64,000 bases of DNA from an uncultured Chloroflexia bacterium (GTDB lineage: Bacteria > Chloroflexota > Limnocylindria > Limnocylindrales > CSP1-4): assembly GCA_963813335.1 (NCBI GenBank), contig CAWEYL010000001.1, forward strand, positions 736,001 to 800,000, read 5' to 3'. The notes below the pieces were generated by a model, which saw only the letters and a program-made list of their open reading frames with translations, was not told where the DNA came from and made no database searches. This document shows, piece by piece, positions 28,093-51,638 of the stretch (position 1 is its first letter; each line of letters opens with the position of its first letter). The translations under genes and the position numbers were made by a program.

Positions 28093-28968
28093 TCAGCCCT
28101 CGGGGAGGACCTCGCGCAGCCTGGCCGCGAACGCGTCGGGCTCGCCGGTCTGGCCGTACTCGCCACCGAGGAAGCCGCCATGACCGCTCGGGAAGGCGGC
28201 GACCGTGGTGCCGAGCCGCTCGGCCGCGGCCTCCGCGCCCCGGTGGGCCATCTCGCCGTCGGACTCGGCGCCCGCGGCGAGCACGATCCGGGTCGGCGCG
28301 GCCTGCAACGCGGCGAAGTCCGGCTGGTAGTGCGTGCAGGTCACGATGTTCTGGAAGAGCAGCGGGTCCGTGCGGTTGCCGTCGTCGCCGGCCGGTAGAC
28401 CGAACATCGCCGGGTCCGGGGCCGGCTGCGCCGCGAGCTCCGCGGTCATCGGCCCCTTGTGGCTCACCGCCACGATGAACTGGGCCATGGCCGGACCGAA
28501 GCCCTGCCGCTCGTAGGTCTCGCCGATGGCCGCGGTGAACGCCATCGCGCCGTCGCGGTCAGGCAGGATCGAGGCGAGCGGCGGCTCGTGGGCGACCAGC
28601 GTCCGCACGTCCTGCGGGTGCGCGGCCACCAGGGCGAGCGCGTTCACCGCCCCGCCGCTGCTGGCGAACAGGTCGACGGGACCGCCGCCGACCGCGGCGA
28701 TGATCCGATGCAGGTCGTCGGCGTGCTGCTCGGGCGTCGAGCGGCTCGCCGGGTCCGCCTTCACGCTGCGCTCGACGCCGCGCGGGTCGTAGGTGACCAC
28801 CGTGCGGTCCGGGAAGTGTCCGGCCAGCGTCGCGAACCCGCCCGCGCCCATCGGCGACCCGATCAGGAACAGGACCGGGGCGGGGGAGTCCGCCCGCCGG
28901 ACGTCATAGGTCAGGACGGCGCCGGGCGCCTCGATCGTCTGCGTCGTGGGCTCGGTCATCGTGGTCAT
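28093..28968 (-). CDS. Alpha/beta fold hydrolase
   Basis: YDPRG, ASSGG nucleophile elbow, HEPP, GHGGF; AGGAGG RBS. Confidence 0.88.
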   Translation of the reverse strand: MTTMTEPTTQTIEAPGAVLTYDVRRADSPAPVLFLIGSPMGAGGFATLAGHFPDRTVVTYDPRGVERSVKADPASRSTPEQHADDLHRIIAAVGGGPVDLFASSGGAVNALALVAAHPQDVRTLVAHEPPLASILPDRDGAMAFTAAIGETYERQGFGPAMAQFIVAVSHKGPMTAELAAQPAPDPAMFGLPAGDDGNRTDPLLFQNIVTCTHYQPDFAALQAAPTRIVLAAGAESDGEMAHRGAEAAAERLGTTVAAFPSGHGGFLGGEYGQTGEPDAFAARLREVLPEG

Positions 28969-29481
28969 CGCGCACCTCCTGCGGCCGCCGCCGTCTCGGC
29001 GAGGATCGCGTCGATCTGGCCGACCGCCTGCGTGAGGCCCTCCTCCATGCCCATCGCCAGGACCTGCTCCATGGCTTCGACGGTGCGGGAAGTGGCTCTC
29101 GATCTGCATCCGCGTGCGGGTGGCGTCGATCGGCTCGATCGTGACGATCCCCTCGCCGCGCGGGAAGTCGTCATTCGGCGTCCCGTCCTCGTTCGCGAAC
29201 CCGTCGATGAAGACGAGTCGGCGCGGCGGATCGACCTCGACGATATCCCAGAAACCGTGCGGCTGGTCGCCACTCGGGCCGGTCATGTGGTACTCGACGT
29301 GGCTGCCGACCGCGAGGTCGTGCTTCGTGAAGGTGGCGGGGTAGGTCGGCGGACCCCACCAGCGCTCGAGCTGGCGCGGATCGGCCCACAGCTCCCAGAC
29401 GCGTGCGGGCGACGCGTCGAACTCTGCGGTCAGGGTCATGGTCAGGGCCTCGGGGTCCTTGCGGACAGCGGTCACCGTCAT
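28965..29481 (-). CDS. SRPBCC/AHA1 domain protein (one frameshift near 29085)
   Basis: RVWELWADPRQLERWWGP...; C-terminal MGMEEG lies in a second frame. Confidence 0.85.
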
Positions 29482-29825
29482 GCGATGGTCTCCTCCGTGC
29501 TGCTGATGAGGGCCGTCATGCGGTCGACGCGACCGCGCCACAGCGACTCGTACTGGTCGAGCAGGCCGCGCGCCATGCGGAGCCCCTCGATGTTCGTGCG
29601 CACGACCTTGCGGCGGCCGGTGCGCTCCTTGGTGATGAGGCCGGCCCGCTCGAGCACCGCGACGTGCTTCTGCACGGCCGCGAAGCTCATGGGGTAATGC
29701 CCGGCCAGTTCGGCGACGCCCTCGCTGCCAGCCAGCGCCCGCAGCACGATGTCGCGCCGGGTGGCGTCGGCAAGGGCGGCGAAGACGTGGTCGGCGTTGA
29801 GGGCGAGCTGCATTGATACAACCAT
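29478..29825 (-). CDS. ArsR/SmtB family transcriptional regulator
   Basis: FAALADATRRDI, MSFAAVQKHVAVLERAGLI; start at 29825 or 29813. Confidence 0.9.
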   Translation of the reverse strand: MVVSMQLALNADHVFAALADATRRDIVLRALAGSEGVAELAGHYPMSFAAVQKHVAVLERAGLITKERTGRRKVVRTNIEGLRMARGLLDQYESLWRGRVDRMTALISSTEETIA

Positions 29826-29835
29826 ACGGTTGTAT
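29816..29835. promoter_or_regulatory. ArsR autoregulatory operator ATACAACC-N4-GGTTGTAT
   Basis: Perfect 8-bp inverted repeat overlapping the ArsR start. Confidence 0.75.
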
Positions 29836-29878
29836 GACGGCCACGTCAAGCCCCAGGCGATGCGGGTAGGCTCCCGTC

Positions 29879-30682
29879 GTGCCATCCATCGACGATCTCG
29901 TCCCGGGTGACCGTGACCAGCTGGACGGTGTGGTCGCGCTGCTGCGTGCGGTCCTTGACGACGGTGCCCTGGCCGTCTACCTGTATGGCTCGGCCGTCCG
30001 CGGCGGCCTCCGCGCCGACAGCGATCTCGACATCTTCGTCGTCACGCGGCGCCCGACGACGCCCACCGAGCGGAAAGCGCTGATCGACGGCCTCATGGGA
30101 CGGTCCCGGTCATCGGAATCTCCGGAACGACGGCATCTCGAGGTGACGGTCGTCGTGCTTGCCGATGTCCGACCGTGGCGGTATCCGCCGCCGCTCGAGA
30201 TGCAGTACGGCGACTGGTGGCGGGACGCGTTCGGAGCCGGCGACCTCTCGCCGTGGACGTCACCGAGCGCCGATCTCGCCGTCCTCCTGGCGTCCGTCCG
30301 CGCCGAGGGCGTGCCGCTGTTCGGCCCGCCGGTCGTCCAGTTGCTCGATCCGGTGCCGCGCGAGGATCTCGAGCAAGCGGTTCGAGAGGTCATCCCGGAA
30401 CTGCTGCCGGGCCTGGGTCAGGACCACACGCGGCACGCGCTGCTCACGCTGGCCCGGATCTGGTACACCCTGGCGACCGGCGAGATCGAGTCGAAAGCCA
30501 CAGCCGCCACGTGGGCGATGGCGCGCATGCCCGCCGGGACAGGTGACGGGCTTCGCCTGGCCCTCGCGGGCTACCTTGGCGAGACGCCGGACACGTGGGA
30601 TGAGCCGGCGCTCGCGGCCGCACGAAGCGACTGGCAGGCGATGCTCGCTGCGCTCGGACCCGACGACGCCGGATCCCCGTAG
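29879..30682 (+). CDS. Aminoglycoside adenylyltransferase family protein (AadA/ANT-like)
   Basis: YLYGSAV.GGLR..SDLD, LEVTVV, PWRYPP..EMQYGDW, DLAVLL, LTLARIWYT...I.SK. Confidence 0.85.
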   Translation: MPSIDDLVPGDRDQLDGVVALLRAVLDDGALAVYLYGSAVRGGLRADSDLDIFVVTRRPTTPTERKALIDGLMGRSRSSESPERRHLEVTVVVLADVRPWRYPPPLEMQYGDWWRDAFGAGDLSPWTSPSADLAVLLASVRAEGVPLFGPPVVQLLDPVPREDLEQAVREVIPELLPGLGQDHTRHALLTLARIWYTLATGEIESKATAATWAMARMPAGTGDGLRLALAGYLGETPDTWDEPALAAARSDWQAMLAALGPDDAGSP

Positions 30683-35811: not shown

Positions 35812-36787
35812 TCAGCGGGCGGCGACGGGTCGGACCAGCCGCAGGAGCTCACCCACCCGGGCGATCTGCTCCGGCGTCCGGTAGATCGCGTTGTTGAAGG
35901 TGAACCCGGTGAACCCGGCCTCGATGTACTCGCCGAGGGTGTCGACGACCTGCTCGGGCGTCCCGGCGACGACATACGGCCGCCGCTCCACCGGCATGAG
36001 CTCCAGGAACGCCTTGGCCTCCGCGTCCGAGCCGACCACGACGACCGGCGCCCCGATCGTGCGCTCGATCGTGGCCGGATCCCGGTCGATCTCCTCGCAG
36101 TAGCGGACCAGCAGCTCGTCCTTGTGGCGCAGGGTCGGGAGCCCGAGCGCGAACCAGTGCGTCATGTCGGCGAACCGCGCGGCGATGCGCAGCGTCCGCT
36201 GCTCGCCGCCACCGCCCACGAGGATGGGCGGGCCGCCCGCCTGGATCGGCCGCGGGCTGTTGAGCGCCTCGTGGATGCGGTAGTGCTGGCCGTGGAAGGT
36301 CGGCCGCTCCTCGGTGAACATCAGGGTGGCGATCGTCAGCGCCTCCTCGAGGCGGTCCATCCGCTCCTTCAGCGGCGGGAAGTCGATCCCGTAGCCGATG
36401 TGCTCCTCCTCGTTCCACGCCGCACCGAGCCCGAAGATCGCCCGGCCGCCGGACACGCACGTCCAGCGTGGTGACCTGCTTGGCGAGCATGGCCGGGTTC
36501 CGGTACGTGACGCCGGTCACGAGCGTCCCCAGGCGGACGGTCGAGGTCTCGCGTGCGAGCGCGGAGAGGACCGACCAGCCCTCGAGCATCGGCTCGGCGA
36601 TCGAGCCCACGCCCTGGATCTGGTACAGGTGGTCCATCACCGTGACGAGCTCGAAGCCGGCCGCCTCGGCGGCCTTCGCCTGCTCGACGACACGGTCGAA
36701 GAGGCGCTCCGGCGGGACGTCCGGGTGGCTGTAGCTGGGGAGGTGGAGACCGAACCAGGGGTGGCGCGAGGCCGTCGCAGTCGTCAT
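35812..36787 (-). CDS. LLM-class F420-dependent oxidoreductase (frameshift near 36457)
   Basis: VMDHLYQI, LGTLVTGVTYRNPAMLAK, then SGGRAIFGLGAAW and GGGGE in a second frame. Confidence 0.88.
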
Positions 36788-36908
36788 CCGGGAAGGATGC
36801 ACCCATCGCCGGGATGGTGCGGGGAGTCGGGCGCGGGACGACGCCCGCCCGATATGCTCACGGGGCGGCATGGATGGACGGCCGTGCGAGCAGGGGAGGG
36901 ACCCGACG

Positions 36909-38318
36909 ATGGCGCTGGCACCGAGCGTCCTGACCGGCGAGCAGCTGGCGGGGCTCCGTGCGGCGTTCGCCGGCCCGATCATCACCCCGGACGACGGTCA
37001 CTACGACCAGGCGCGCCACCTGTGGAACGACGTCCACGATCGCAGGCCGGCCGTCATCGTCCAGCCGCGGTCGAGCGCGGAGGTCGCGACCGCCATCCGG
37101 TTCGCCCGCGAGCACGACCTCGCCCTGGCCGTCCGGTCCGGTGGCCACAGTCCCTCGGGCCACTCGACCTGCGACGGCGGTCTCGTGGTGGACATGTCGC
37201 AGATGCGCGGCGTGACCGTCGATCCGGCGACGCGCACGGCCAGGGCCAACGGCGGCGCGCTCCTCGGCGAGCTCGACGTCGCCGCGCAGGCGCACGGGCT
37301 CGTCTGCCCCATCGGCGTCATCGGCCATACCGGCGTGGCCGGGCTCACCCTCGGCGGCGGCGTCGGGCGGCTCCAGCGGCACTTCGGGCTGACCATCGAC
37401 AACCTGCGCGCGGTCGAGCTCGTGACCGCCGACGGCCGGTCCGTCCGCACGAGTGAGACCGAGGAGCCCGAGCTGTTCTGGGGCATGCGCGGCGCCGGCT
37501 GGAACTTCGGGATCGCCACGGCGTTCGAGTTCGGGCTGCAGCCCTTCGGCCCGGATCTCCATCGAGGGGCGCTCGTCTATCCCGCCGCGGCCGCCCGCGA
37601 CGTCTGGGCGGTCTTCGAGGACTACGCCGCGAGCGCCCCGGAGGCCGTCTCGATGATCTACTCGCTCGCGCCGGCCGACGAGGAGACCGTCGCCCGCGCG
37701 AACGGCGTGGCGCTCGGCGACCCCATCGTGGTCGTCTCGTTCAACCACAGCGGCCGCGCCGAGGACGTCGAGCGCGATACCGCCGGCCTGCGCCGCGGTC
37801 CGGAGCCGGTCTCGGCGAGCAACGGCAGCGAGCCCTACCTCGAGGTCCAGGCCGCCCACGACCTCGTGCTCGGCTGGGGCCACCGCTCGTTCATCAAGGG
37901 CCTGTACGCCGACGTGTTCCGCCCCGAGGCGCTCGATGCACTTGTCGACCACGTCGCCGACGGTCCGGCCGGGGGTTCGTTCTCGGTCACGGCGCAGGGC
38001 GGCGCGATCGCCCGGGCGGAGGAGGGGTCGGCGGCCTACGCCGGGCGGGCGGCCCGCTTCGACCACAGCGCCGACGTCGCCTGGGAGGACCCCGCCGACG
38101 ACGACGCCAACCGCGCCTGGACCCGCCGCGCGATGTCGTTCGTCGAGGCGGACGCCATCGAAGGACGCTACGCGAACGAGAACGCCGACGACGGCCCGGC
38201 TGAGTCGCGCCTCATCTACGGCGACGCGAAGCTCGCCCGCCTGGCCGCGCTGAAGCGGACCTGGGACCCGGACAACGTCTTCCGACTGAACCACAACGTG
38301 GCGCCCGCGCCGGACTGA
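36909..38318 (+). CDS. FAD-binding oxidoreductase (berberine bridge enzyme-like)
   Basis: AVRSGGHS, GLTLGGG, LFWGMRGAG.NFGI, LKRTWDPDNVFRLN. Confidence 0.92.
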   Translation: MALAPSVLTGEQLAGLRAAFAGPIITPDDGHYDQARHLWNDVHDRRPAVIVQPRSSAEVATAIRFAREHDLALAVRSGGHSPSGHSTCDGGLVVDMSQMRGVTVDPATRTARANGGALLGELDVAAQAHGLVCPIGVIGHTGVAGLTLGGGVGRLQRHFGLTIDNLRAVELVTADGRSVRTSETEEPELFWGMRGAGWNFGIATAFEFGLQPFGPDLHRGALVYPAAAARDVWAVFEDYAASAPEAVSMIYSLAPADEETVARANGVALGDPIVVVSFNHSGRAEDVERDTAGLRRGPEPVSASNGSEPYLEVQAAHDLVLGWGHRSFIKGLYADVFRPEALDALVDHVADGPAGGSFSVTAQGGAIARAEEGSAAYAGRAARFDHSADVAWEDPADDDANRAWTRRAMSFVEADAIEGRYANENADDGPAESRLIYGDAKLARLAALKRTWDPDNVFRLNHNVAPAPD

Positions 38319-38360
38319 CCGGGGGTCAGCCCGACGCTGGACGCTGCGACGTCCCCGGGA

Positions 38361-39464
38361 TCAGGGGGCCGGTTCGTACACGAGCGTTCCGCCGTCCTTG
38401 AGCGTGATGGTCAGCCCACCACCGTTCACGATCGCGTAGCTGGCGCTGTTCGTGAGCGCGAGGATGTACAGGTCCGATTTCGACCCCTCGCCGCAGAGGA
38501 CGATGCTCGACGGCCCAGGCACGATCGACAGGCCTCCGGTCGCGGTCGCCGTCCAGGTACCGATCAACACGTTGCAGTCGGCCGTCGCGCTGAAGGTCCC
38601 GGCCGCGGCGAATGAGACCGTGTACTTGAAGCGCTCGGCGGCCGGGACCTCGCCGCCGGCCACGGGCTCGCGCGTGGTGAACGATGCGAGCTGCCAGTTC
38701 GTGTCCACGAGGTCCCCGCCGGCCGGCGGCGTCGGCGTCGGCGTCGGCGTGGGCGCAGGGGTCGGCGTCGGTGCCGGGGTCGGGGTGGGTGTCGGCGCAG
38801 GAGTCGGTGCTGGCGTCGCGGTCGGCTTGGCCGTCGGGCCAGCGCTCGGTGCCTCGGATTCCGGCGGCGTGGGGGACGGGGTCGGGGTCGGCGTCGGGCT
38901 GGGCGTGGGCGACGGACTCGCGGTCGGCGTCGGACTCGGCGTCGGGGACGGAGAAGGCGTCGGACTCGGACTGGCCGTCGGGACCGCCGTCGGGACGACG
39001 GGCGCGGTCGCGGAGTCCACGAACGTGCCCGTCCCGCCTTCGGACGTGGTCAGCGTCAGGTGAGCTCCCGAGACCGCCCACGTCTCCACCGTGCCGAGGG
39101 AATGCGCGAACAGGCTGCCGTATGAGCCCTCCGGGCAGGCCACGAGCGTGCTCGGGCCGGGGGTGATGGTGATGCCATCGGTGCGAGAGGTCGAGTAGGT
39201 GCCACTGACCGCGTTGCAGTCCGCCCGCGCGGCGAAGGTGTCATCGGTCGCGAACGTGATCGTGTAGCGCGGCTGGTCGGCAGCCGGGACGACGCCCTGG
39301 AAGGCGGGCGTCTGCCCGGTGATCGCGGCGAGCTGCCATGTCCGGCCGGTCAGCGACCCGCTCTCCGATCCTCGGTTGACGAACGCAAAGAGCAGCAACC
39401 CGGCGACGATCACGCCGACGACGATGAGTGCGATGGTCGTGGTCTGCGGACGCTCTTCTTCCAT
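38361..39464 (-). CDS. Membrane-anchored protein with two META domains and a Pro/Thr linker
   Basis: Two copies of WQLA...YT..F...ADCN...ST/SI..C; PT repeats between them. Confidence 0.85.
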
Positions 39465-39554
39465 GGGATCCCCCTGACGATCGGGAACCGCCAAGACGGG
39501 ACGGGCGGCAGGCCCAAGATGCTAACGGAACTGCCGGTCGCGTACCCTGTGGCC

Positions 39555-39908
39555 ATGTCGCAGGTGATCGATTACATCGAGTTCGCGGTCGACGACCTGG
39601 AGCAGTCGAAGGCCTTCTACGCGACGGCGCTCGGCTGGACGTTCAACGACTACGGCCCTGACTACGCGGGCGTCAAGGACCCGCGGACCGGCGGGGAGTT
39701 CGCCGGGCTCAACCCACAGCCCGTCGCCTCGCGCGGCGAAGGGGTGCTGGCGCTGATCCGCACCGACGATGCCGACGCGGCCCTGGTCAGCGTGCTGGAG
39801 GCGGGTGGCCGGGTCCACGTGGCGATGCACGACTATCCGGGTGGCCGTCGCTTCATGTTCGCGGATCCCTCCGGGAACGTCCTCGGCGTCTACGAGCCCG
39901 CCGAGTAG
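39555..39908 (+). CDS. VOC family protein
   Basis: IDYIEF, FYATALGWTFNDYGPDY, YPGGRRF.FADPSGN. Confidence 0.9.
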   Translation: MSQVIDYIEFAVDDLEQSKAFYATALGWTFNDYGPDYAGVKDPRTGGEFAGLNPQPVASRGEGVLALIRTDDADAALVSVLEAGGRVHVAMHDYPGGRRFMFADPSGNVLGVYEPAE

Positions 39909-40052
39909 CGGCGCGTAACGTCTGAGGGGCGCTCCGCGTCCCAGTCTCGCCGGCCGAGACGACCGCGGCGTGACAAATTCGCGTGCACCAGCGAAGATGT
40001 CGCGGCCGCCGGGGACGAGGCCCGGCGCCGGCCGACCGCACATGAGCATCTG

Positions 40053-42160
40053 ATGACCGACTTGCCCAACAACGAAGCCGACCAGGCTGCCAACGCCTCA
40101 ACACCCGACGACGAGACGCCCGCCGGCGTCGCCACGCCCGACGACGAGACGCCCGCCGGCGTGCCGCGCCCGCCGGCGACCCTGAGCTCGCGGCGCTCGT
40201 GGGGGGCGATGGGGCGCCTGCCGATGACGAGACGACCCAGGCCGCCCCGGATGATGCCACCGCGGATGATGCGACCACCGCCGACGTCGATGCCGTGCCG
40301 GTCCTGCCCGTCGCGGCCGCCGTGACCGACGGCGAGCCCCCGGCACGGCCTCGGCGCCGACGGTCGCTCGTCCTCCGCTTCGGCGTCTCGTTCGTCCTGG
40401 GCTTCCTGCTCGCCGTCGGCATCGGCACCGGCGTCCTGTACGCGTGGGGCCAGCAGTACGACGGCCGGGTCCTGCCCGGCGTCCGCGTCGGCAGCACGGA
40501 ACTCGGCGGGCTCACCCGCGAGCAGGCGGAGGCGGAGATCGCGAACGCCTATGGGTCGCTCGGCACCGGGCAGATCACGCTCACCGGCCCGGACGGCCAG
40601 ACGACGACCATCAGCTACGCCGACGTCGGCCGCGGCCCCGACACCTCGGCGCTGCTCGACGCGGCACTCGCGGCAGGCCGCCAGGGCGAGCCCCTCGCGA
40701 ACCTCATCGGCGCACCCCAGGCCGCGATCCACGGCGTGACCCTCGACTCCGCCGTCGCCTACGACCGCGACAAGCTGGCGGCCGCCGTCGAGACCCTCGC
40801 CACGACGATCGACCAGACCCCCGCGGACGCCTCCGTGTCGGCCGGCCAGGGCGGGACGTTCAGCGTCTCCCCGGCGAAGGACGGTCGCGCCGTGGACAAG
40901 GCGGCCCTGCTGACCGCGCTCGACCAGCAGCTCGCGGCGCTCGACACGCCGGCGTCGATCACGATGGCCGTGCCGGTCGTGTCGTTGGCACCCGCCGTCG
41001 CCACCGCCTCGGCCGAGGCGGCGAAGGCGGCCGCGGATCGAATGGCCGCCGACGTGGTCGTCGCCCGGGGCGAGGACAGCTGGACGATCGCCGGCACGAG
41101 CCTCGCGCCGCTGATCTCGTTCTCGACCGCGGCCGACGGGAGCATCACCCCGGTCTTCGACGAGTCGGGCCTCGACCCGATCCTCAAGACGCTGGCCAAG
41201 AATGTCAACCAGACCGCGCGGGACGCGGGCCTCAAGCTGGTCGGCGGACACGTCGTCGCCACCGGCACCAGCCGCGAGGGCCGAACGCTCAACGCTGACG
41301 GCATGAAGGCCGCGATCATCAGCGAGATCGGGGCCCGCCAGGCGGGCGCGGCGGCATCGCCGGTCGAGGCCGTCGTCAAGGCCGTCGACCCGAAGCTGAC
41401 CATCGGCCGACGCCAAGGCGTTCGCCGCCAAGATGCGGCCCATCAGCTCGTACAGCGTCTTCTACTGGGTCATCGTCAACAACCACTGGGGCGGGAACAT
41501 CGAGGCGCCGGCCACGAAGATCAACGGCACGGTCGTGCCGGCAGGCGCGACGTTCGACTTCTGGAAGGTCGTCGGCGACCTGCGCAAGCTCCCGGGCACG
41601 GGCCCCGGCAACGCGATCGAGGGCGGGAAGATCACCGTCACCGGCGCGTTCGGCGGCGGCATCTGCACCACGTCCACGACGCTGTTCAACGCGGCGTTCC
41701 GGGCCGGCATGGTGCCGCTCGCCAAGCAGAACCACAACGAGTTCATCACCCGGTATCCGCCGGGCCTCGATGCCACCGTGTGGATCGTCGGCAACACCAA
41801 GCAGACCATGAGCTTCAAGAACGACACCAAGTACCCGATCCTGATCACGCGGACCGTCACCCAGGCCGGCAGCAAGCGATGGCTCACGTTCAAGATCTGG
41901 AGCGTGCCGAACGGCCGGACCGCCAAGGTCAGCAACCTGGTCATCCAGCACGGCCCGACGCGCGATCCACACGGATCGTGAAGGATCCGACCAAGCCCGT
42001 GGGGTACCGGTTCTTCAACAACGCCCCGGCGGACGGCGCCAAGGTGTGGGTCACCGTGTCGATCTACGACCACGGCAAGCTCCACTGGACGAAGCGGTAC
42101 TTCTCGAACTACCCAGCGGTCGACGGCGTCACCGTGGTGGGAACCAAGAAGACGACCTGA
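40053..42160 (+). CDS. VanW family protein with peptidoglycan-binding domains (several frameshifts)
   Basis: TM anchor, VLPGVRVG, VanW core GGGICTTSTTLFNA and YPPGLDATV, FKNDT; frame changes near 40160-40200, 41405 and 41960. Confidence 0.8.
40104..40162 (+). repeat. In-frame 33-bp tandem repeat (TPDDETPAGV x2)
   Basis: cccgacgacgagacgcccgccggcgt at 40104 and 40137. Confidence 0.85.
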
Positions 42161-42185
42161 CGCCCGTCTGGCTGGCGCTGGGGGA

Positions 42186-42223
42186 GGGGGATCAGCGCGA
42201 CAGATCGGGGTGATCGCCCCTTT
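42186..42223 (+). terminator. Possible intrinsic terminator after the VanW gene
   Basis: gggggatca...tgatcgcccc imperfect stem followed by ttt. Confidence 0.35.
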
Positions 42224-42332
42224 CGTCGAGCGGGCGTCGTCGATAGCGTCCGGCGCATGGACCGTCAGGGCGTCGTGCCACCTCGGACACAGACCTTCCT
42301 CCTCGAGACGGTACCTGGCCAGGGGAGATCCC

Positions 42333-42987
42333 GTGAACCGACTTCGTGCCGTCCTGATGTCCCTGGCCGTCGTCCTCGTCGCATGCAACGCCACGACGGG
42401 CGGCTCCTCCGGCCCGTCCGAGGCCGCCGTCGCGTCGCCGGTCGCCGTCTCGAGCCTGACCGCGACCGACACACCCGAGACGTCCGCGCCGACCAGCGCG
42501 CCCAGCCCGAGCCCAAGCCAGAGCGATGTGCCCGTCGTCGGGGCGTCGGCCACGCCCGGCGCCTCAGCCAGCCCCGGATCGATCGACCCGTGCACCCTGC
42601 TGACCGCCGCCGAAGCATCGAAGGTCATCGGCACCAAGGTGGGCGCCGGCGTCAGCGCAATCCGCTGATCCGCTCCGGGTCTGCACGTTCAAGGGGAGCG
42701 GCCAGACGGAGCTGAAGGTGTTCCTGGCGGCTCCGGCCCCAGACGCCAAGACCGCGAGCGGCTACTGGGATGGCCAACGCGCCGAGGTCCCGGCAGACAT
42801 CCCCATCAAGGACCTGACCGAGTTCGATCGGTCGGCCTACGGCACGGGTGCCTCCGTAGGGCTGCCCATCAGCGCCCTCTTCGTCCTCGACGGCAGGTAC
42901 TTCTTCGAGGTCTACTGCGGGTTCCCGGCCTGCTCACAGAAGGCCAGCCTGGGCGCCGCCGACCACATCGCCGGCCGTCTGCCCTGA
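42333..42987 (+). CDS. Hypothetical lipoprotein (frameshifted near 42660)
   Basis: VVLVAC lipobox, P/S linker, IDPCTLLT motif; continues in ORF 42718-42987. Confidence 0.7.
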
Positions 42988-43012
42988 TGCGACGGCGCGC
43001 GTCGAGGCCGTC

Positions 43013-43573
43013 CTAGACGTCGGCCTCGGGCGCCTCCATGCGCTCGAGGAGCGCCAACGTCGTCTGCCAGCTGCGGATCGTCATCGACTTGTAGGCCGGC
43101 GTCCCCACGATCTTGCTGAGGCGGCTCTTGGTCCGTTGGGCACTCAGTCGCTGCGAGTAGATCACGCCGCTTCCGGGCCACACCTCGTCGACGCCGGGCC
43201 GCGGGTCGAAGACCTGCATGGCCGTCGGCGCGTCGATGTCGATGAGGAACACCGCGTCGCTGTGGTACGTCTCCGGATGATCGCCGAAGCCCTTCGGCCG
43301 GTTCCGGACGACGGCGCGGAGCTGGTCCAGCGTCAGGATCAGCACCGCGATCAGCTCGCTGTCGAGCTTGAAGGTCTTGGGGAGCGCCTCCTCGAGCTCT
43401 CGCTTGATCGCGGTCGCGGACTGGTCGGAGCTCAGGATCACGTTGCCGCTGGCGATGTAGGTGGAGACCTTCGTGTGGCCGTGCGATTCGAGGAGGTCGC
43501 GCAGGGCCGCCATCGGCACCTTGTTCCGGCCGCCGACGTTGATCCCGCGCAGGAGGACGAGGTATCGGGTCAC
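43013..43573 (-). CDS. DUF1697 domain protein
   Basis: YLVLLRGINVGGRNKVPMAAL, TYIASGNV, TIRSWQT. Confidence 0.9.
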   Translation of the reverse strand: MTRYLVLLRGINVGGRNKVPMAALRDLLESHGHTKVSTYIASGNVILSSDQSATAIKRELEEALPKTFKLDSELIAVLILTLDQLRAVVRNRPKGFGDHPETYHSDAVFLIDIDAPTAMQVFDPRPGVDEVWPGSGVIYSQRLSAQRTKSRLSKIVGTPAYKSMTIRSWQTTLALLERMEAPEADV

Positions 43574-43575
43574 GC

Positions 43576-44031
43576 TCAGCGCTTCCCGAACCCCGGGATG
43601 GCCGTGGCCTGCTGCATCCACGAGGCGATCTGGCGTTCGTCGATGTCGTCCAGGGAGGCGAGGTCCACGCCGCGCGTGGCCTTGCCCATCCCGATCGGCG
43701 TCACCGGCGGTTCGGGCTGGAGGGAGGTGCCGCGCCCGAACGCGAGCTTGACGTGGCCTTCGAAGCCGCCGCACGAGAAGCACCAGCCGTCGCCGACGCC
43801 ATAGAACGCCATGCCCCATTTCACGGCGCGCTGCAGGTCCGGCAGCGTCTCGGCCGCCAGGGCATCGACGCGCTCGGCGATGGAGCGTTGCGGCTGCGGC
43901 AGGCTGGCGATGTAGGCGAAGACCGGCTTGTCGCCGACCGCGGCCTTGGCGGGGCTGGCCCTGCCCGTCATGGCGGCCGGCAGCGTCGTGAGGACGTTGC
44001 CTTGCTCGGCCGTCGGCTTCTGGCTTGCCAT
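43576..44031 (-). CDS. DUF1801 domain protein
   Basis: AVKWGMAFYG, HVKLAF..GTSL.P.PP; GAGGAGG RBS. Confidence 0.8.
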   Translation of the reverse strand: MASQKPTAEQGNVLTTLPAAMTGRASPAKAAVGDKPVFAYIASLPQPQRSIAERVDALAAETLPDLQRAVKWGMAFYGVGDGWCFSCGGFEGHVKLAFGRGTSLQPEPPVTPIGMGKATRGVDLASLDDIDERQIASWMQQATAIPGFGKR

Positions 44032-44151
44032 GACGCACCTCCTCGTGCCGCCGGCGATGGCGGCGACGCATCATACGAATGATGCCGAACTCGACGGAGC
44101 GACCGAAGGCCACGAACGTCGGGTCGGATCCTGGAGCAGGGAAGGGGACCC

Positions 44152-44816
44152 GTGAAGCTTCTCCTCACGTCCGGCGGCGTCACGAACGCGAGCATCCGCG
44201 ACGCCCTGGTCGAGCTGCTGGGCAAGCCGATCGAGGACGCCGCGGCGTTGTGCATCCCGACGGCGCAGTGGGGCCACCCGATGTGCGACCCGACCTCGGC
44301 GCGGGGCTTCGTCACCGGCCTGCCCCCGTGGGGTGGCATGACCTCGATGGCGTGGAAGTCGCTGGGCCTCCTCGAGCTGACGGCCCTGCCGACGATCGGC
44401 GCGGAGCGCTGGGTCCCCTGGGTCCGCGAGGCCGACGTCCTGCTCGTCGACGGCGGCGACGCCACGTACCTGTGCCACTGGATGCGCGCGTCCGGGCTCG
44501 CGGACCTCCTGCCATCGCTGCCCGACACGACCTGGGTCGGGCGTGAGCGCCGGGAGCATGGTGATGACCCCGCGGATCGGCGACTTCTTCGTGGAGTGGC
44601 CGTCGGCGCCGGACGACCGCACCCTGGGCATCGTCGACTTCGCGATCTTCCCGCACCTGGACGTCTTCCCGACGAACACGCTCGCCGCGGCCGAGCGCTG
44701 GGCGGCCGACATCGGCATCCCGGGCGTACGTCATGGACGACCAGACCGCCATCCGGGTCGTCGACGGCAAGGTCGACGTCATCTCCGAGGGGACCTGGAA
44801 GCTGCTCGGCAGGTAG
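44152..44816 (+). CDS. Peptidase E (S51)-like class I glutamine amidotransferase domain protein (frameshifted)
   Basis: KLLLTSGG, CIPTA, DGGD; SAGSM nucleophile and FPHLD in a second frame; SEGTW in a third. Confidence 0.82.
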
Positions 44817-44820
44817 TCTC

Positions 44821-44856
44821 GACGGGCCGGGCCCCGGGGGAGGGGACCGGCCCGTC
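44821..44856. terminator. Stem-loop between convergent genes
   Basis: gacgggccgg...ccggcccgtc 10-bp perfect stem. Confidence 0.65.
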
Positions 44857-44862
44857 GTTCAT

Positions 44863-45112
44863 TCAGCGCTGGTAGTGGTCGCGGTCGCCGTCAAAAGCTG
44901 CCACTGCTGAGGCAGCAGGCCGCGTAGCGCTTGCCCGACCCGCATGGGCAGGGATCCTTGCGACCGAGCTTCTCGATGGAAGCAACTCCTTGTCGCCGTG
45001 CACGACGCGGTCGCCGCGCTTGACGTTCGTCTCCGACGGGAACCCGCGGCGACGCTTGCTAGTGGGCTCGAAAGCGCACCTGCGCTTCGAGGTCTCGATC
45101 GTGGCGTGCCAT
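44863..45112 (-). CDS. Small SEC-C motif zinc-binding protein (frameshifted; pseudogene or sequencing error)
   Basis: GAGGAGG RBS; [13 protein letters not shown]...KELL, then [21 protein letters not shown] in another frame. Confidence 0.7.
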
Positions 45113-45279
45113 GACGCACCTCCTCTGGAGCTGGGTGCGACCGAAGCACCTCGGCGCTGCGGGACTATGACACCCGAGGTGACACCGCGCTCGCGCACAC
45201 TCGCCGCGTCATCGGCGAGACGGCCGTCTCCTACACTCGCCGACGCTGTCCGCCGATCGAGCCGGAGGGACGTGAAGCG

Positions 45280-45807
45280 TTGATCACGAGTCCACCGACA
45301 CTGGTCTATCGCGCGATCAGCCGAGCGAGCCATGCCATGGGCCGACGTTGGCCGAGCCTCGACGTTCCGGTGAAGCCCCAGCGCTGGAACGGCGAGGCCC
45401 AGCCCACCATCTATGCGTCACTCGAGCCTGAGGTCGCCGCGGCCGAGAAGCTCGGCCACCTCGCGTCGTCCAGCACCTTGGCATCAGCACGCGCCTTCTG
45501 GGGCTCTGCTCCTGCGATCCACGAAGTGCTTGTCGTCTCATTCGTGCCTGACCTGTTTCGCACGAGCCTCGTCGACCTGAGCGGCCTGCCCGATATCGGT
45601 GACTTCCTGACACCGAATTTGACCGCCAGCCAGGGGTTGGCCGCGGTTCTCGTCGCGAGCGGGGCGACGGCACTACGCGTCCCGTCGGCGGTCTTCTGGC
45701 CCGACGTCCGGCTGAATGAGGTCTACTTCGTCACGCTTGCCGGCCAACTCGGGCAAGCGGATTTCCCAGCCGTCACAGAGCACGGTTGGTACATCGGTGC
45801 CGCTTGA
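45280..45807 (+). CDS. RES domain protein (putative NAD+-consuming toxin)
   Basis: VYR...RWN...IYASLE...AAE...SQGLA...LRVPSA...N pattern of the RES family. Confidence 0.7.
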
Positions 45808-45850
45808 CAGTGGGATAAGGGTGGGATACGGTCGGGATACGCATGGGAGA
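45804..45850 (+). promoter_or_regulatory. Sigma70-type promoter TTGACA-N17-TACGGT overlapped by four GGGA(T/G)A repeats at 11-bp period
   Basis: TTGACA 45804-45809, TACGGT 45827-45832; repeats at 45812, 45823, 45834, 45845. Confidence 0.7.
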
Positions 45851-45855
45851 CGGAC

Positions 45856-46257
45856 ATGTCCGCCGTCATCGAGTCCATCCAGGTCGTCCAAGGTGCGACC
45901 GACCAAACCTCTCTGTTGACCGTTGCGCGCTTCTTCCGGGTCCCGCCGACGGGCGAGGTCATGCAAAAGCTGACCGGCAAGGGCAGTTCGGTCCTGGAGC
46001 GCGTCAAGAATGGCGGCAAGCTCGGATCGGCGGATGACCGGGCGCACTTGGAAGTCCTGGCAGCGTTCGTGCGCGAGTTGGGCGGCTACCTTGCGCGCGC
46101 GATGGGGCCCAGGGATGACTCTGGATTCGGGATGGAACGTTGGCTCGCCGGCGGGCAGGTCGAGGTCGGCGCCCGTATCTACCGGCCGATCGACGCACTT
46201 TCCGATCGCGACCTGGCGGTGGGCGCCTTGAATACGCTTCGAGCGACACTGGATTGA
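45856..46257 (+). CDS. Hypothetical protein, putative Xre/MbcA/ParS-like antitoxin
   Basis: Adjacent to the RES gene; C-terminal WL...RPIDAL resembles the toxin-binding domain of RES antitoxins; possible N-terminal HTH. Confidence 0.5.
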   Translation: MSAVIESIQVVQGATDQTSLLTVARFFRVPPTGEVMQKLTGKGSSVLERVKNGGKLGSADDRAHLEVLAAFVRELGGYLARAMGPRDDSGFGMERWLAGGQVEVGARIYRPIDALSDRDLAVGALNTLRATLD

Positions 46258-46288
46258 TAAACCATCGGGTCAAGTCCAACGAGGGCCG

Positions 46289-48223
46289 TTGATGCACCTC
46301 TATCAAGGCACGACCGACCAATTCATTGGCGACGCCACCCAGGCACGCATCGCCAACTACTTGTCTGACCGGTTCTTCGAGGAGTTCCGGTATCGGCCGG
46401 GGCAGTCCGAGGTCAATTCGTGGCGCAACTCGCTCGCCGCGATGGCCAATGTCCTCCAATCTGCGGACCTTACGGACCAGGGGATCCTCGTCGAGCTGAA
46501 GCTCCCGCTGTCTTCGAAACGCCTCGACGTGATGATCACGGGCTCCAACCCGGTCACCGGGGACTCCGCGGTGATCGTCGAGCTCAAGCAGTGGACGGAC
46601 GTCGGCCGCTCGAACGTCACCGACTGCGTGACGATCGACTACGGCGGCCGGGCGCGAGACACGCTGCATCCATCGCGGCAGGTCGCCCAATACCAGCGGT
46701 ATCTGCTCGACACCCATCCAGCCTTCGGCGACGATCCGGCCATCTCCCTCGACGCCTGCGCCTACCTGCACAACGCCGAGCGCGACCCGAAGTCGCCGCT
46801 GAACCTTCCTGAATTCACTTCCCTCATGGCCTCGAACCCGGCTTTCACCGGGAGCGAGCGGAGCGCGCTGATCGACTTTCTCGAGGCGCGAGTGGTCGGG
46901 CCCGATGACGGCTCGATCCTCGATCGTGTCGCGAGCACGGCGTTCCGCCCGCACAAGCGTCTGCTCGACCATGTCGCGCGAGTCATCAAGCAGGAGCCGG
47001 TCTTCACGCTCCTGGACGAGCAGCAGGTCGCCTACAACGCGATCATGGATTCGGTCCGGTCGGCCGGCCAGAACCAGCAGAAGGTCGCGTTCATCGTCGC
47101 GGGCGGGCCTGGGACCGGGAAGTCGGTCATCGCGGTCAACCTGGTAGCGGAGCTATCCGGACTCGGCCTGCGGACCCTGCACCTCACGGGCTCGAAGGCC
47201 TTCACGGAGAACCTTCGGAAGATCGTCGGGCCGCGTGCCAGCGCGATGTTCAAGTACTTCCGCGACACGGCGACCGTCGACGAGCCACTCGATGTAGCCA
47301 TCCTCGACGAGGCTCATCGGATTCGGACGATCAGCACGAGCCGCTTCACTCCGGCGAAGGCCCGAACTGGCAAGGCCCAGATCGACGACATCCTCGACGC
47401 GAGCCGAGTCACGGTGTTCTTCATCGATGACCTGCAGGTGGTTCGTCCAGGCGAGGTCGGCAGCACGGACCTGATTTGCGAGTCGGCCGCCAAACGCGGC
47501 CTCGAAGTCCGCGAGTTCGAGCTCGAGGCGCAGTTCCGCTCGAACGGCTCCGACGCCTTCATCCAATGGGTCGATAACACGCTTGAGCTGGCGCGAACAC
47601 CGCAGGTCCTTTGGCCGATGGACGATGACTTCGACTTCCGAATCGTCGGCTCGGTCGGCCAACTCGAGCACATGATCCGTGCCAAGGCGGGGGAGGGGTC
47701 GACCGCTCGCCTCGTCGCCGGGTTCTGTTGGCCCTGGTCCGACCCCGACGACACGGGCGACCTTGTGCCCGACGTCAGGGTGGGGGAGTGGTCGATGCCC
47801 TGGAATGCCAAGGACGGCGTCGGTCGGCTCGGGTCAGGCATTCCGAAGTCAGACTTCTGGGCGAGCGCGCCGGAGGGGATCAACCAAGTCGGCTGCGTCT
47901 ACACGGCGCAGGGCTTCGAGTTCGACTACGTCGGGGTCATCTTCGGCCCGGATCTCGTGCTACGGACGATGGAAGGCGGGTGGCTCGGCCAGCGCGACGC
48001 AGTCGCACGACCGAGTCGTCCGCCGTGGCGTCACCGATCAGGAATTCACCGAGTTCGTGAAGAGCACGTACCGCGTACCTGCTGACGCGGGGCCTCCGCG
48101 GCTGCTACGTTGTACTTCATGGACGCCGCGACGCGGGACTTCCTTCTTAGCCGCTGTGAGCGCATCCTACCCGCCGCATTGAACGCGGCTGAGACTGCTC
48201 GGGAATTCGAGCCGACAGAATGA
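46289..48223 (+). CDS. DUF2075 family nuclease-helicase (frameshifts near 47960-48115)
   Basis: N-terminal PD-(D/E)xK-like RLDVMI...IVELKQW; Walker A GGPGTGKS, Walker B ILDEAH, QFR, YTAQGFEFDYVGV; repaired C-terminus ...TRGLRG...MDAATRDF ends at TGA 48223. Confidence 0.85.
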
Positions 48224-50971
48224 GTCGAGCTACCGGGGAACCCGATTTCGATCCAGCCGACGCGGCGGGTGAACAGCCCGAGCGCATCGCCCCTGAGACA
48301 ACAACGACCGGAGAAACGAACCCGCTTATCGCAATGTCCGCACGGGTTGACCCCTGGCTGCAGGACCTTATTCGTCGTGCCTACACGCAGGGGCGTTTGA
48401 GCGCCGCAGATATCTCGGCGGGCCTGGACCTGCTGAAGAGGGACAAACACATCGACATCGGGGCTGGTGGAATTGAGGCCGAGCCGCTCACGGCTGCGCA
48501 CCTCCGGCCGACGACAACGACCGCGCTGCCAGTTGTGCTGAACGCGCTTGCGGAAGCTCGGTCCGTGAACAGGCTCGCAGATGATCAGGAGCTCAACTTC
48601 GCCGTAACCGGGGTAACGGTGATCTATGGCGACAACGCGAGCGGGAAGAGTGGCTACACCCGCCTCTTGAAGAGGCTTTGCCGGACGCGGTCTGGGGCTC
48701 GTGAGCCGATACTCTCGGACGTCTTCGCCACTGTTGGCGGATTCAGGCCCCGGGCTGAGGTCCGTTTTACGATCGGAGGAGGCGCAGTCCAATCCGCGAT
48801 ATGGCAAGAAGGCGACGACCCTCCGGCAGACCTCTCGAGGCTTTCGGTCTTCGACGCGAGGTCGATTCCCATCTACGCGGATCAACACAATGAGATGGAG
48901 TTTCTCCCTTATCACCTAGACGTTCTCCCCGAAGTCGCCCGTGGCATGCAGCACATGGCGGAGCTTCTTGAGGTCGAGATACTGGCGTCGCGTCGAGTCC
49001 TCGAGCGAGCATTCCCTGTCGATGTGCGCGAGACATCTGCCGAAGCGCGCGTCCGCGGACTGACGACCGAGGCGCCGGCGGATGAGTTGGCGACCGCAGC
49101 CGAAATCACCGAACTCGCCAGCTTGTCGGTGGACGAGCGCGAAGAACTTCGCGTCCTGCGCCTGGCGCTAGCTGAGCATGATCCTCGTGCGGCCGGCGCC
49201 AGACGGACTGAGGCAACTCGTTTCCGCGCGATCGCCGAGCGTCTGATCCCCGCCGAACAACTCCTATCAGACGAGGCGATTGGACGGCTCTCCGCCCTCC
49301 GAGATGAGGCAACGGCCGCAGCAATGGCCGCGGATATGGCTGCCTCAGAGGCGTTCAGTGGAGGAACCGTTTCCCGGAGCGGGAACCGACGCTTGGCGAA
49401 GAATGTATGGGTACGCCGGCGCACTTCTATCGTCAGGCGGACCAGCAGACGAATTCCCGCCGTCGCATCAGGGGGCTGTCTGTCCCCTGTGTATGCAGGA
49501 ACTCGGGCCGGATGCCGTAGATCGCTTCGCGAGATTTCAACGATTTGTTGTCGATCATGCGGCCGCCGAAGCACGCCGCCTTCACGGCTTAGTGGAGGAG
49601 GCATTGGTCCTGATCAGGGACCTCGCTCTCCCGTCACCTGAGTCCGTTTCCGGACTACTTGGTGGGGGAGAGGAGCTTCCGGGACCTGACCCCGCAGGTT
49701 CATTTGTCGAGGCGTTGGTTCAGCGGCGAGCCCTCGTGATCGACGGGCAAGGAGCCGGCGAGCCCCTGGCTCCGCTTACTGGATCCGTTGCCGCCAGCGC
49801 GGAAGCTCGAGCCGCGACACTCGACAGCGAAGCGGCCGCAATTGATGCGAGTGTCGACGACACCCAAAGGCGCGTGGTCGAAGGCCGAGCCAGAGACTTG
49901 AGCGCGCGCGAGGCCCTCGCCGCGCACCTCGACGACCTCCTGGACCGACGCGAGCATGCCGATCGACTTCGTGGACTGCGGCGTGCGCGGAGCGACTGTG
50001 ACACCACGTCCATGTCGCGGTATGCCACAGAACTTCGGCGACAGTTCGTTACGCGCGACTACGCGGATTCGCGCTCAGGACTGAAGCCGCCGCCGTTGGA
50101 TTGGGATACCTACCCCTTCGTATCGACGACCGTACCGAACACGGCGTTAGGCCACATTCGCGTAGCCCTCGACGCTCCGGCCAGCCCAAGGAACCGAGAG
50201 GTCGTAGCGGCACGGTGAGTACCGGGGGCTCGCGCTCGCATGCTTCCTCGCAGAGCTGTCCGACGCGCCCGGTCACTCAGGCATCGTTGTAGACGATCCA
50301 GTGTCCTCGCTGGACCAAGCTCGAACCATCGCAGTGGCGCGACGCCTAGTTCGGTGAGGCAGCTGACGGCCGCCAGGTCATCGTATTCACACACGATCTG
50401 GTGTTTCTCGAAGCGATCCGAGCAGCTGCCTCCGCGACGCAAGTACCGTACCTATCGCATTGGCCGACTCGAGGCGCCGATGATCGGCCCGGCGTGGTGC
50501 GGCCCAATCAGGAGCCTTGGCAGGTTCGCAAGGTACGCACTCGACTTGGCGACCTAAGACAGAGCCAAGCTCAGCTTGCGAGACCCCAGGACCGGTCATC
50601 CGATTTCTATCGCCAGGAGGTGACAGCGTTCTACGCTGCCCTCCGCGAGACATGGGAACGACTGGTCGAGGAACTCCTGCTAAACGACGTGGTCGGGCGA
50701 TTTCAAGTCTCCGTCGCCACTCAGCGTCTCAAAAGGCGTCGAGGTGGGAGACCCTGACTACGCGGCGATATTCCACGCAATGGCTCGTGTCTCCACATTC
50801 TCAGGACACGACACGGCCTTAGCTCGCCACATCGCCCTTCCATCAGCCGACGAGATGCTCGTGGATATCACTGAGCTCGCCACCTATGTCGATTTCATCA
50901 ATGCACGTCGCGGACCGCTGGAAACCAGGCGAAGGCGACTTGAGGAGCCACCAGCAGGTGCGCTGGCTTAA
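48220..50971 (+). CDS. SMC/Rad50-like ABC ATPase with zinc hook, RloC-like (multiple frameshifts)
   Basis: YGDNASGKSG Walker A; CPLC hook; GEYRGLALACFLAE signature region; VVDDPVSSLD Walker B/D-loop; VFTHD H-loop; C-terminal RETWERLVEELL...SGHD. Confidence 0.8.
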
Positions 50972-51050
50972 GGAAGGGTTCGCGGCGTAGACATAACTCA
51001 CCTTATCGGAAGTGACATATCCCTGCATGCGCGGTCCCGCGGCATGTGCG

Positions 51051-51638
51051 TCATGTCCAGCCGAACAACGTGGCCGGCGTCCCCGGTGGTGGCCACAGCA
51101 CCGTCGCCATGACGAGCGCCGCGACCGTTGATCCAGAGAGCGACATGACCAGGTCCTGGATCGTGTTCTCGTACGTCAACTGGAGCCCGGACGAGCCGCT
51201 CTGCATCATCGCGAATTCACCGACCTCCCAGAGGATGTCGACGACGGCCCCGAAGCCCAGGACGAGGCCGAACAGGATCCAGCGCTCGCCGACGAGCGGC
51301 GCGATGGCCAGTCCGAACGCGATGCAGAGGCAGAACCAGCCGACCGAATGCGGGATGGCGTCGAAGCCCTTGATGGCGAACAACCCGAGGACATTCGCAC
51401 CGGCGTCGAGCGCGAACGGGATCCCGAGCGCGATGTCGGCCGCGAACGGGTATGGGCCGGGTCGACCGCCGGCCAGCCAGACGAGTGGGATCAGGACCGT
51501 CGTGGCTGGATACAGGACCGCCCGCACACCCATGGCCTTGCCGGCGAAGCGGGAGGGATCCGGCCGGACGATCGGGTAGACCGACAGCGCGATCACCATC
51601 GCCTTGACGATGACATCGATGACGAGACCGATGCTCAT
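51051..51638 (-). CDS. Hypothetical membrane protein
   Basis: Multiple TM segments; D..PH and LWEVGEF...Y.NTIQDL motifs. Confidence 0.75.
   Translation of the reverse strand: MSIGLVIDVIVKAMVIALSVYPIVRPDPSRFAGKAMGVRAVLYPATTVLIPLVWLAGGRPGPYPFAADIALGIPFALDAGANVLGLFAIKGFDAIPHSVGWFCLCIAFGLAIAPLVGERWILFGLVLGFGAVVDILWEVGEFAMMQSGSSGLQLTYENTIQDLVMSLSGSTVAALVMATVLWPPPGTPATLFGWT

Follow-up and report, generated by a model that had tools for sequence, protein, structure and literature searches.

The window analysed here is a stretch of 64,000 nucleotides (nt) of contig CAWEYL010000001.1, from an uncultured Chloroflexia bacterium. Between positions 45280 and 50971 it holds an island of four defence-type genes, all on the plus strand. 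The first gene (45280..45807) encodes a RES toxin of 175 amino acids (aa), with a TTG start codon and no evident frameshift. The second (45856..46257) encodes ORF2, a 133-aa protein that lies 3' of the toxin and is probably an antitoxin of the Xre/MbcA/ParS type, as judged from its predicted fold and from leads in an Atlas feature search. The third (46289..48223) encodes a PD-(D/E)xK nuclease joined to a DUF2075/superfamily 1 (SF1) helicase, and it is about 642 aa long when three +1 frameshifts are read through. The fourth (48220..50971) encodes an RloC-like ATP-binding cassette (ABC) ATPase of the Rad50/SMC type, about 915 aa long when six frameshifts are read through. An earlier note on this DNA had described four co-oriented genes and had taken them for one coupled system without a name. 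The shared orientation stands. However, we suggest that three separate modules, acquired horizontally, make up a mosaic defence island here and that the four genes are not one machine, and we put the probability of this reading at about 0.6.

The genes are closely spaced, with 48 nt between the RES and ORF2 genes, 31 nt between the ORF2 and DUF2075 genes, and a 4-nt overlap between the DUF2075 and ATPase genes. With the frame changes allowed for, the overlap reads ATGA (48220..48223), as the earlier note had it: the TGA stop codon of the DUF2075 gene (48221-48223) shares two bases with the ATG start codon of the ATPase gene (48220-48222). The length of the DUF2075 read-through fits that of its homologues, and this supports the placement of the stop at 48221-48223. 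There is no other start codon between 48220 and the conserved N terminus of the ATPase. Because the stop and the start overlap, the two genes are probably co-transcribed here.

The island stands out from the rest of the window in its composition. The GC content of the whole window is about 0.70, and it dips to 0.59 to 0.66 across 45.5 to 51 kb. The GC content at third codon positions (GC3) is 0.645 in the ATPase gene, 0.77 to 0.79 in the RES and ORF2 genes, and 0.86 in the DUF2075 gene, against 0.87 to 0.96 in 12 flanking genes. The ATPase gene is therefore richer in A/T-ending codons than the flanks, just as had been claimed, and its foreign codon usage is real.

The ATPase gene is broken into four open pieces. 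These match a single PADLOC profile, PDC-S06, one after another (positions 13-353, 343-574, 688-797 and 803-857 of 858). An 895-aa homologue, P0001, matched the same profile at positions 9-856 of 858 with an E value of 1.5e-158, and the E values of homologues went down to 2e-230. We found 62 long relatives of the ATPase (779 to 926 aa), all of them annotated as AAA_13 in precomputed annotation, and the closest was 46% identical. In a scan with AAA_13 itself (PF13166, gathering threshold 36 bits), the homologues P0001, P0005 and P0026 scored 50.5 to 58 bits and P0012 scored 31.3 bits. The broken pieces in the window had no AAA_13 match of their own.

The motifs of an ABC ATPase can be read from the translation on the plus strand. 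They comprise a Walker A motif, GDNASGKSG (48628-48654), a Walker B motif with its D-loop, IVVDDPVSSLD (50283-50315), and an H-loop with the switch histidine, VIVFTHD (50377-50397). The Walker A, Walker B/D-loop and switch-histidine columns are invariant in the 26 relatives of alignment A1. In the middle of a long helical insert is CPLC (49481..49492), a CxxC motif of the zinc-hook kind, and both of its cysteines are present in 26 of 26 relatives. The AlphaFold2 (AF2) model of P0001, with a predicted local distance difference test score (pLDDT) of 83, has an ABC head and, from about residue 206 to 605, a long helical insert that holds the CxxC (396-399); its C-terminal domain (745-895) is entirely helical. 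In this model helices flank the CxxC on both sides. The best fold matches of the model were SMC and Rad50 entries, entries containing Lamassu LmuB, and JetC-type entries.

The earlier note had listed an ABC signature along with these motifs, and this is the one item that departs from expectation. The signature region (50203-50240), which lies beside the frameshift at about 50205, reads VRHGE, whereas the family consensus is LSEGE. In the 26 relatives the serine and the first glutamate of the consensus are at least 90% conserved, and the glycine and the second glutamate are invariant. No single insertion or deletion restores the consensus in the window. The deviation may be one more error in the sequence, or the signature serine may truly have been lost.

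The C-terminal domain also links the protein to RloC. By the published definition, RloC combines PrrC-like ABC motifs with a coiled-coil/zinc-hook insert that bears a CxxC and with a C-terminal Arg-x3-Glu-x36-52-His motif (PMC2610378), and the histidine of this triad is often preceded by a serine (Davidov & Kaufmann 2008, PMC2610378). In the window, the all-helical domain (50641..50812) contains Arg-x3-Glu in LRETWER (R-ETW-E), followed after 49 residues by the histidine of SGHD. This is the triad pattern of anticodon nucleases of the RloC/PrrC type. Among the relatives in alignment A1, the arginine is present in 21 of 26, with serine in the other five, and the glutamate and the histidine are each present in 26 of 26.

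Fold searches added leads on this domain. The search with the full ATPase model was dominated by SMC/Rad50 heads and was uninformative on the C-terminal domain. Outside the family, the Atlas structures closest to the C-terminal part were HEPN clusters, with template modelling (TM) scores of 0.48 to 0.55 that serve as a lead only. A check for the HEPN motif Rx4-6H found R-x6-H in the window before SGHD; that arginine is kept in 17 of 26 family members and is lysine in six. The ATPase homologues that we scanned had no match to Pfam HEPN families, and NCBIfam models assigned neither the four proteins nor their intact homologues to a specific family.

The claim that the ATPase is RloC-like was therefore upheld by the CxxC and by the C-terminal Arg-x3-Glu-x36-52-His motif. 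On the evidence of its sequence the ATPase appears RloC-like on every feature tested, and strict membership of the family is one step short of proven. Two observations weigh on the other side. In five of five relatives the match to the PADLOC PrrC model was confined to the Walker B region (positions 167-231 of 372) and did not extend to the C-terminal domain, and the VRHGE sequence would count against a working ATPase if it is inactivating.

This assignment bears on PDC-S06 as a whole. In the papers searched, we found no demonstrated function for it. According to a passage of one preprint, PADLOC PDC-S04 and PDC-S06 coincided with DefenseFinder RloC and SoFic, 'respectively'. The PDC-S06 gene of S. 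thermophilus ST55 is given as 2190 bp, a size that suits an RloC-type protein. PDC-S06, or at least its subtype PDLC04891/04893, is now linked to the published hallmarks of RloC, namely the CxxC hook and Arg-x3-Glu-x49-His. It thereby gains a concrete candidate function that can be tested, DNA-triggered cleavage of tRNA.

The DUF2075 protein was also as had been described. It matched Pfam SLFN-g3_helicase/DUF2075 with an E value of 2e-72, and its first 100 residues hold a nuclease signature, E..D..ExK (E68, D79, E97 and K99), that is near-invariant in 32 relatives, including four distant ones from plasmids. Its Walker A and DEAH motifs are conserved among the same 32 relatives. PADLOC gave only partial matches to this protein, PDC-S41 and Nhi, and the Nhi profile was matched only in the P-loop region (positions 182-333 of 470 at E 1.6e-10, and overall no more than 182-339). 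The order of a PD-(D/E)xK nuclease and a DUF2075 domain is termed Nhi-like in the Millman 2022 preprint, and Bari et al. describe the same nuclease and helicase order for Nhi; in these accounts Nhi and Nhi-like systems are single proteins. Judged by its sequence, the architecture of the window protein is Nhi-like. The family is large, with 7004 of the 8000 scored candidates matching at E<=1e-3. Among the best 120 listed clusters (P0064-P0182), identity runs from 100% down to 69%, which is unusually high conservation for a defence-type gene. A few of the listed records are labelled by their sources as belonging to different phyla, two of them to Candidatus Wallbacteria and Chloroflexota.

We then weighed whether the frameshifts in the two large genes are errors of sequence or true decay. 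The DUF2075 gene has three towards its 3' end, at about 47997, 48076 and 48108, each of which would fit one extra base relative to the intact homologues of about 640 aa (P0064-P0067). The ATPase gene has six relative to P0001, at about 49364, 50065, 50150, 50205, 50348 and 50734; five look like +1 events, one of them in an A4 run, and one looks like a -1 event. Insertions of one base thus make up eight of the nine frameshifts, all within 4.7 kb. A tblastn search with P0001 covered residues 11-895 of that homologue, with the frame changing along the way. Large deletions are absent, the reading with the frame changes set meets no internal stop, and the catalytic motifs are all intact.

Unrelated genes upstream of the island are broken too, all within window positions 35815-44810. 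A luciferase-like monooxygenase gene (at about 36457) has its profile positions 11-93 and 95-239 in two frames. In a VanW-family gene (at about 41404 and 41965), the VanW domain is out of frame with the PG_binding_4 domain within one open reading frame (ORF) of 653 aa. A peptidase S51-like gene (at about 44538 and 44727) matched its profile below the threshold, with positions 80-109 in one frame and 120-164 in another. A META-domain gene (at about 38715 and 38980) shows two frame switches in the GC3 frame analysis only, and its domain is unsplit. These breaks, together with those of the island, suggest a local stretch of poor assembly at 35.8 to 51 kb. In addition, near-identical copies of the two small genes in other assemblies break at other places. 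P0204, a copy of ORF2 on a 90,401-bp contig, is 100% identical over its first 76 residues and then changes frame where the window is intact. P0205, a copy of RES that is 97% identical, likewise changes frame where the window is intact.

We therefore consider it probable that the nine frameshifts are assembly errors, because insertions prevail, large deletions are lacking, every catalytic motif survives, unrelated, core-like neighbours have broken frames too, and near-identical copies break at different positions. Gene decay in bacteria is usually deletion-biased. The alternative is a decaying island, in which the frameshifts are genuine and have left the DUF2075 and ATPase genes as pseudogenes of a foreign insertion. 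The packing of nine frameshifts into 4.7 kb, the loss of the Ser-Glu of the ABC signature and the foreign GC and GC3 values of the island fit this alternative. So does the distribution of the breaks: they cluster in 35.8 to 51 kb and are not spread over the window, which is odd for a uniform sequencing error, and each Pfam domain match in 0 to 35 kb and in 51 to 64 kb is whole inside one ORF. On balance, decay seems an unlikely explanation, although one that keeps some weight. Either way, the cluster of insertion-type frameshifts at 35.8 to 51 kb is a quality warning for annotators of this assembly.

Farther upstream, one 598-aa ORF on the minus strand (28093-29889) spans matches to an alpha/beta-hydrolase and to AHSA1/SRPBCC, and its GC3 frame call alternates inside. 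It may be a fusion, a read-through or a product of more frame errors.

The two small genes come first in the island. The RES assignment is secure in Pfam, at 48.5 bits against a cut-off of 23.2 (E 1.3e-12), so the toxin named in the earlier note is confirmed. All full-length relatives, of which the nearest is 66% identical, retain the R (RWN), E (AEK) and S (VPS) motifs. The subfamily is very small, with 11 matches at E<=1e-3 among 1.84 billion representatives. The NCBIfam model Res_ParT_toxin scored 21.9 bits, under its cut-off of 110. A further RES match, P0209 (1370 aa), was dropped as spurious, being a repetitive carbohydrate-binding protein. Searches of plasmids by tblastn with RES and ORF2 gave no match.

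For ORF2, the earlier description as antitoxin-like gained support from structure and feature leads. ORF2 has 21 homologues at 67 to 100% identity, none with a Pfam domain. Its AF2 model has a mean pLDDT of 68. The eight best matches of this model in the PDB are all chains of complexes of RES toxins with their antitoxins, namely NatRT (8qnl, 8qnq), VPA0770/VPA0769 (8gug) and P. putida Xre-RES (6gw6, 9r35). The scores of these matches were E 0.16 to 1.5, TM about 0.35 to 0.55, and a probability of 0.96 for the top matches. An Atlas feature search gave ORF2 scores of 0.88 to 0.89 to clusters that carry PF09722 (Xre_MbcA_ParS_C), below the 0.9 line and so a lead only. The model thus points to ORF2 as probably the Xre/MbcA/ParS-type antitoxin of the RES toxin. 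A search of PDB sequences with the ORF2 profile returned only spurious repeat matches to designed WD40 proteins.

Three points speak against this assignment. The Pfam scan of ORF2 found nothing even at E<=10, PF09722 included. The fold matches are weak, with E values of 0.16 or worse from a model of pLDDT 68. Finally, three ORF2 homologues of 225 to 227 aa (P0200-P0202) begin with about 92 aa that are hydrophobic, membrane-like and unrelated to RES, and this N-terminal extension stands in the place of an in-frame preceding RES. It may be a different upstream gene that has been read through, or a fusion.

The alternative is that ORF2 is a regulator or partner of the DUF2075 gene, and that the RES toxin is solitary or paired otherwise. 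The position of ORF2, 31 nt 5' of the DUF2075 gene, is a usual site of antitoxins or regulators, and its lack of a Pfam antitoxin domain and the lack of an in-frame RES before P0200-P0202 suit this view. In addition, the longest contig listed is 45,960 bp, with the same source, for both P0188 (an ORF2 homologue) and P0081 (a DUF2075 homologue), which is the only hint of linkage elsewhere. However, the eight best folds and the Atlas lead all go to antitoxins of RES, and the family sizes do not agree: DUF2075 has 7004 matches at E<=1e-3 (of 8000 candidates scored) and ORF2 has 22, so most DUF2075 genes must be without an ORF2. Four other contigs with ORF2 (11 to 26 kb) had no counterpart of the same size among the 120 listed DUF2075 contigs, which is weak evidence in the same direction. 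We consider a partnership of ORF2 with the DUF2075 gene quite improbable.

In known RES/Xre pairs the antitoxin gene usually comes first. Here the ORF2 gene is downstream of the RES toxin gene, and not upstream, so the window may hold a RES/Xre-like pair in toxin-first order, with a toxin of a very small RES subfamily. Upstream of the RES gene are two imperfect 29-nt direct repeats of family D4 (45178..45242). They are spaced 36 nt apart, each ends in ACACTCGCCG, and they sit 40 to 100 nt 5' of the RES start. As a speculation, these repeats could be an operator, for example for an Xre-type repressor, or part of a promoter region.

The remaining question is whether the four genes belong together. 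A genome scan with alignment A1 returned 705 matching stretches; 586 of them were confirmed as relatives of the ATPase, and the best 80 were kept and gave 74 loci from many phyla. In these loci, tblastn at E<=1e-3 with RES, ORF2 and DUF2075 found no relative (0/74). Hidden Markov models (HMMs) of the RES and ORF2 families found nothing in the 13,959 six-frame ORFs of the 74 loci. The DUF2075 HMM gave two marginal matches only among these ORFs (E 0.004 and 0.01), and one of the two was in a DUF4011 helicase ORF. The adjacency of the DUF2075 and ATPase genes is thus absent from these loci, and plasmids gave the same result. None of the three records inspected out of 106 that matched DUF2075 had an adjoining co-oriented gene of the AAA_13 type; on the opposite strand, one of them had an 'ATP-binding protein' of unknown family. 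None of the three inspected out of 284 that matched the ATPase had a DUF2075 gene within 4 kb.

We also scanned 33 of the larger ORFs that flank the ATPase relatives, chosen by size. They are varied defence and mobile genes, namely type ISP and type I restriction-modification, nSTAND3, DUF4011 helicase-nucleases, RmuC, DUF2130, TIR, SMC-like ATPases, a relaxase and a coupling protein, and none of the 33 is a DUF2075 gene. Some of these partners recurred: RmuC in three loci (L020, L040, L045), DUF4011-helicase-MTES_1575 nucleases in three (L015, L035, L072), DUF2130 in two (L021, L070) and nSTAND3 in two (L013, L022). The recurrent partners fit residence in defence islands, and RmuC and DUF2130 may be a looser association.

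The distances to the nearest relatives differ from gene to gene. Identity is 46% for the ATPase, 90% for the DUF2075 protein (with many relatives at 80 to 90%), 78% for ORF2 and 66% for full-length RES. The search for ATPase relatives scored the 8000 candidates that share the most words, a method that would favour close relatives. If the DUF2075 and ATPase genes travelled together, the contigs with DUF2075 relatives at 80 to 90% identity should have yielded ATPase relatives far above 46%, so the two genes do not appear to do so. We therefore take the modules as separate, because they do not co-occur in the loci examined and because their GC3 values and nearest-relative identities are very different. 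Each is also of a kind described as working alone: RloC has its internal switch (PMC3458546), and Nhi and Nhi-like systems are single proteins. Two points go the other way. A conserved pairing among very close relatives is excluded only indirectly, and the ATGA overlap suggests that here the DUF2075 protein and the ATPase are at least translated together. To us the overlap looks more like genes packed closely at this locus than like a partnership that has been conserved.

The earlier proposal of a single system could take the form of a co-functional machine of four or two genes, in which DNA ends or unwinding by the nuclease-helicase trigger the switch of the ATPase and RES/ORF2 act as an extra effector or regulator. 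Its appeal is in the shared orientation, the short gaps, the ATGA overlap and the lack of a plus-strand terminator-like site inside the island. In the work of Klaiman et al. 2012 (PMC3458546), the nuclease of RloC is activated by its DNA-dependent ATPase, which makes an upstream role for a nuclease-helicase plausible. However, with the pairing in none of the 74 loci and in neither set of plasmid loci (0/3 and 0/3), with no ATPase relative above 46% identity beside many DUF2075 relatives at 80 to 90%, and with a sharp GC3 contrast (0.86 against 0.645) between the two overlapping genes, we regard such a machine as highly improbable. A version restricted to this lineage, in which the DUF2075 and ATPase genes form a translationally coupled unit that links DNA attack to tRNA cleavage beside a toxin-first RES/Xre-like pair of new arrangement, has an equally slim chance; if true, DNA ends or unwound DNA from the nuclease-helicase would feed the DNA-dependent switch of the ATPase.

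In the mosaic of three modules that we favour, each module would act by itself. The first would be a type II toxin-antitoxin (TA) pair of the RES/Xre-like kind, with the toxin first. RES would act by depleting NAD+ or by ADP-ribosylating a target, and ORF2 would bind and neutralise RES and probably repress the promoter. The second would be a single-protein, Nhi-like nuclease-helicase that, from its architecture, would attack phage DNA. The third would be an RloC-type protein of the PDC-S06 family, with a Rad50-like ABC head, a CxxC zinc-hook insert and, at its C terminus, a helical nuclease domain that bears the Arg-x3-Glu-x49-His triad. If it acts as RloC does, its ATPase would depend on DNA and would turn on the cutting of tRNA anticodon loops, and so stop translation. 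Because the locus is a composite of known types of module, it should not be logged as a new system.

The edges of the island are modest in their features. An inverted repeat at 44820-44857, with a 16-nt stem that is 94% complementary and a 6-nt loop, lies directly 3' of the peptidase S51-like gene; this hairpin is probably the terminator of that gene and the left edge of the island. There is no convincing gene in the 470 nt 5' of the RES gene, and the gene immediately 3' of the island is on the opposite strand. A scan of 44700-51300 for sigma-70-like promoters found no promoter-like site (0 sites). The terminator scan found one terminator-like site, on the minus strand. Both counts are lower than in shuffled sequence. 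Direct and inverted repeats around the island, as possible scars of integration, are at chance level only. The whole window has no tRNA gene, and no Rfam family was found in 40 to 55 kb.

Each module has a known counterpart. The first resembles the RES/Xre type II TA systems NatRT, VPA0770/VPA0769 and P. putida Xre-RES in having a RES toxin with the R/E/S motifs and an adjoining small all-helical protein, which here resembles the antitoxins by its model. It differs from them in the order of the genes, with the toxin first and the antitoxin-like gene second, in that PF09722 is undetected in ORF2, and in that the RES subfamily of the window is very small. The second is, like Nhi of Staphylococcus epidermidis and Nhi-like proteins, a single polypeptide in which a DUF2075/SF1 helicase comes after an N-terminal PD-(D/E)xK nuclease. 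However, it matches the PADLOC Nhi profile in the P-loop region only, and its clade is unusually conserved, with over 100 listed clusters that are 69 to 90% identical.

The third module was compared with RloC of Geobacillus kaustophilus through the published motif definition. Both have an ABC ATPase head that is split by a coiled-coil insert with a central CxxC, and both have the C-terminal Arg-x3-Glu-x36-52-His (x49 in the window) with a serine near the histidine. Both are also laterally mobile and found as stand-alone genes. In contrast to the 804-aa GkaRloC, the window ATPase is about 100 aa longer, and its family has, according to the model, an extra helical segment at the N terminus. The triad arginine is replaced by serine in five of 26 relatives of the window ATPase, and the window copy is frameshifted. 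A further counterpart of the third module is PADLOC PDC-S06, an unvalidated single-gene candidate, whose profile the window ATPase matches from end to end and from which it does not differ at the family level.

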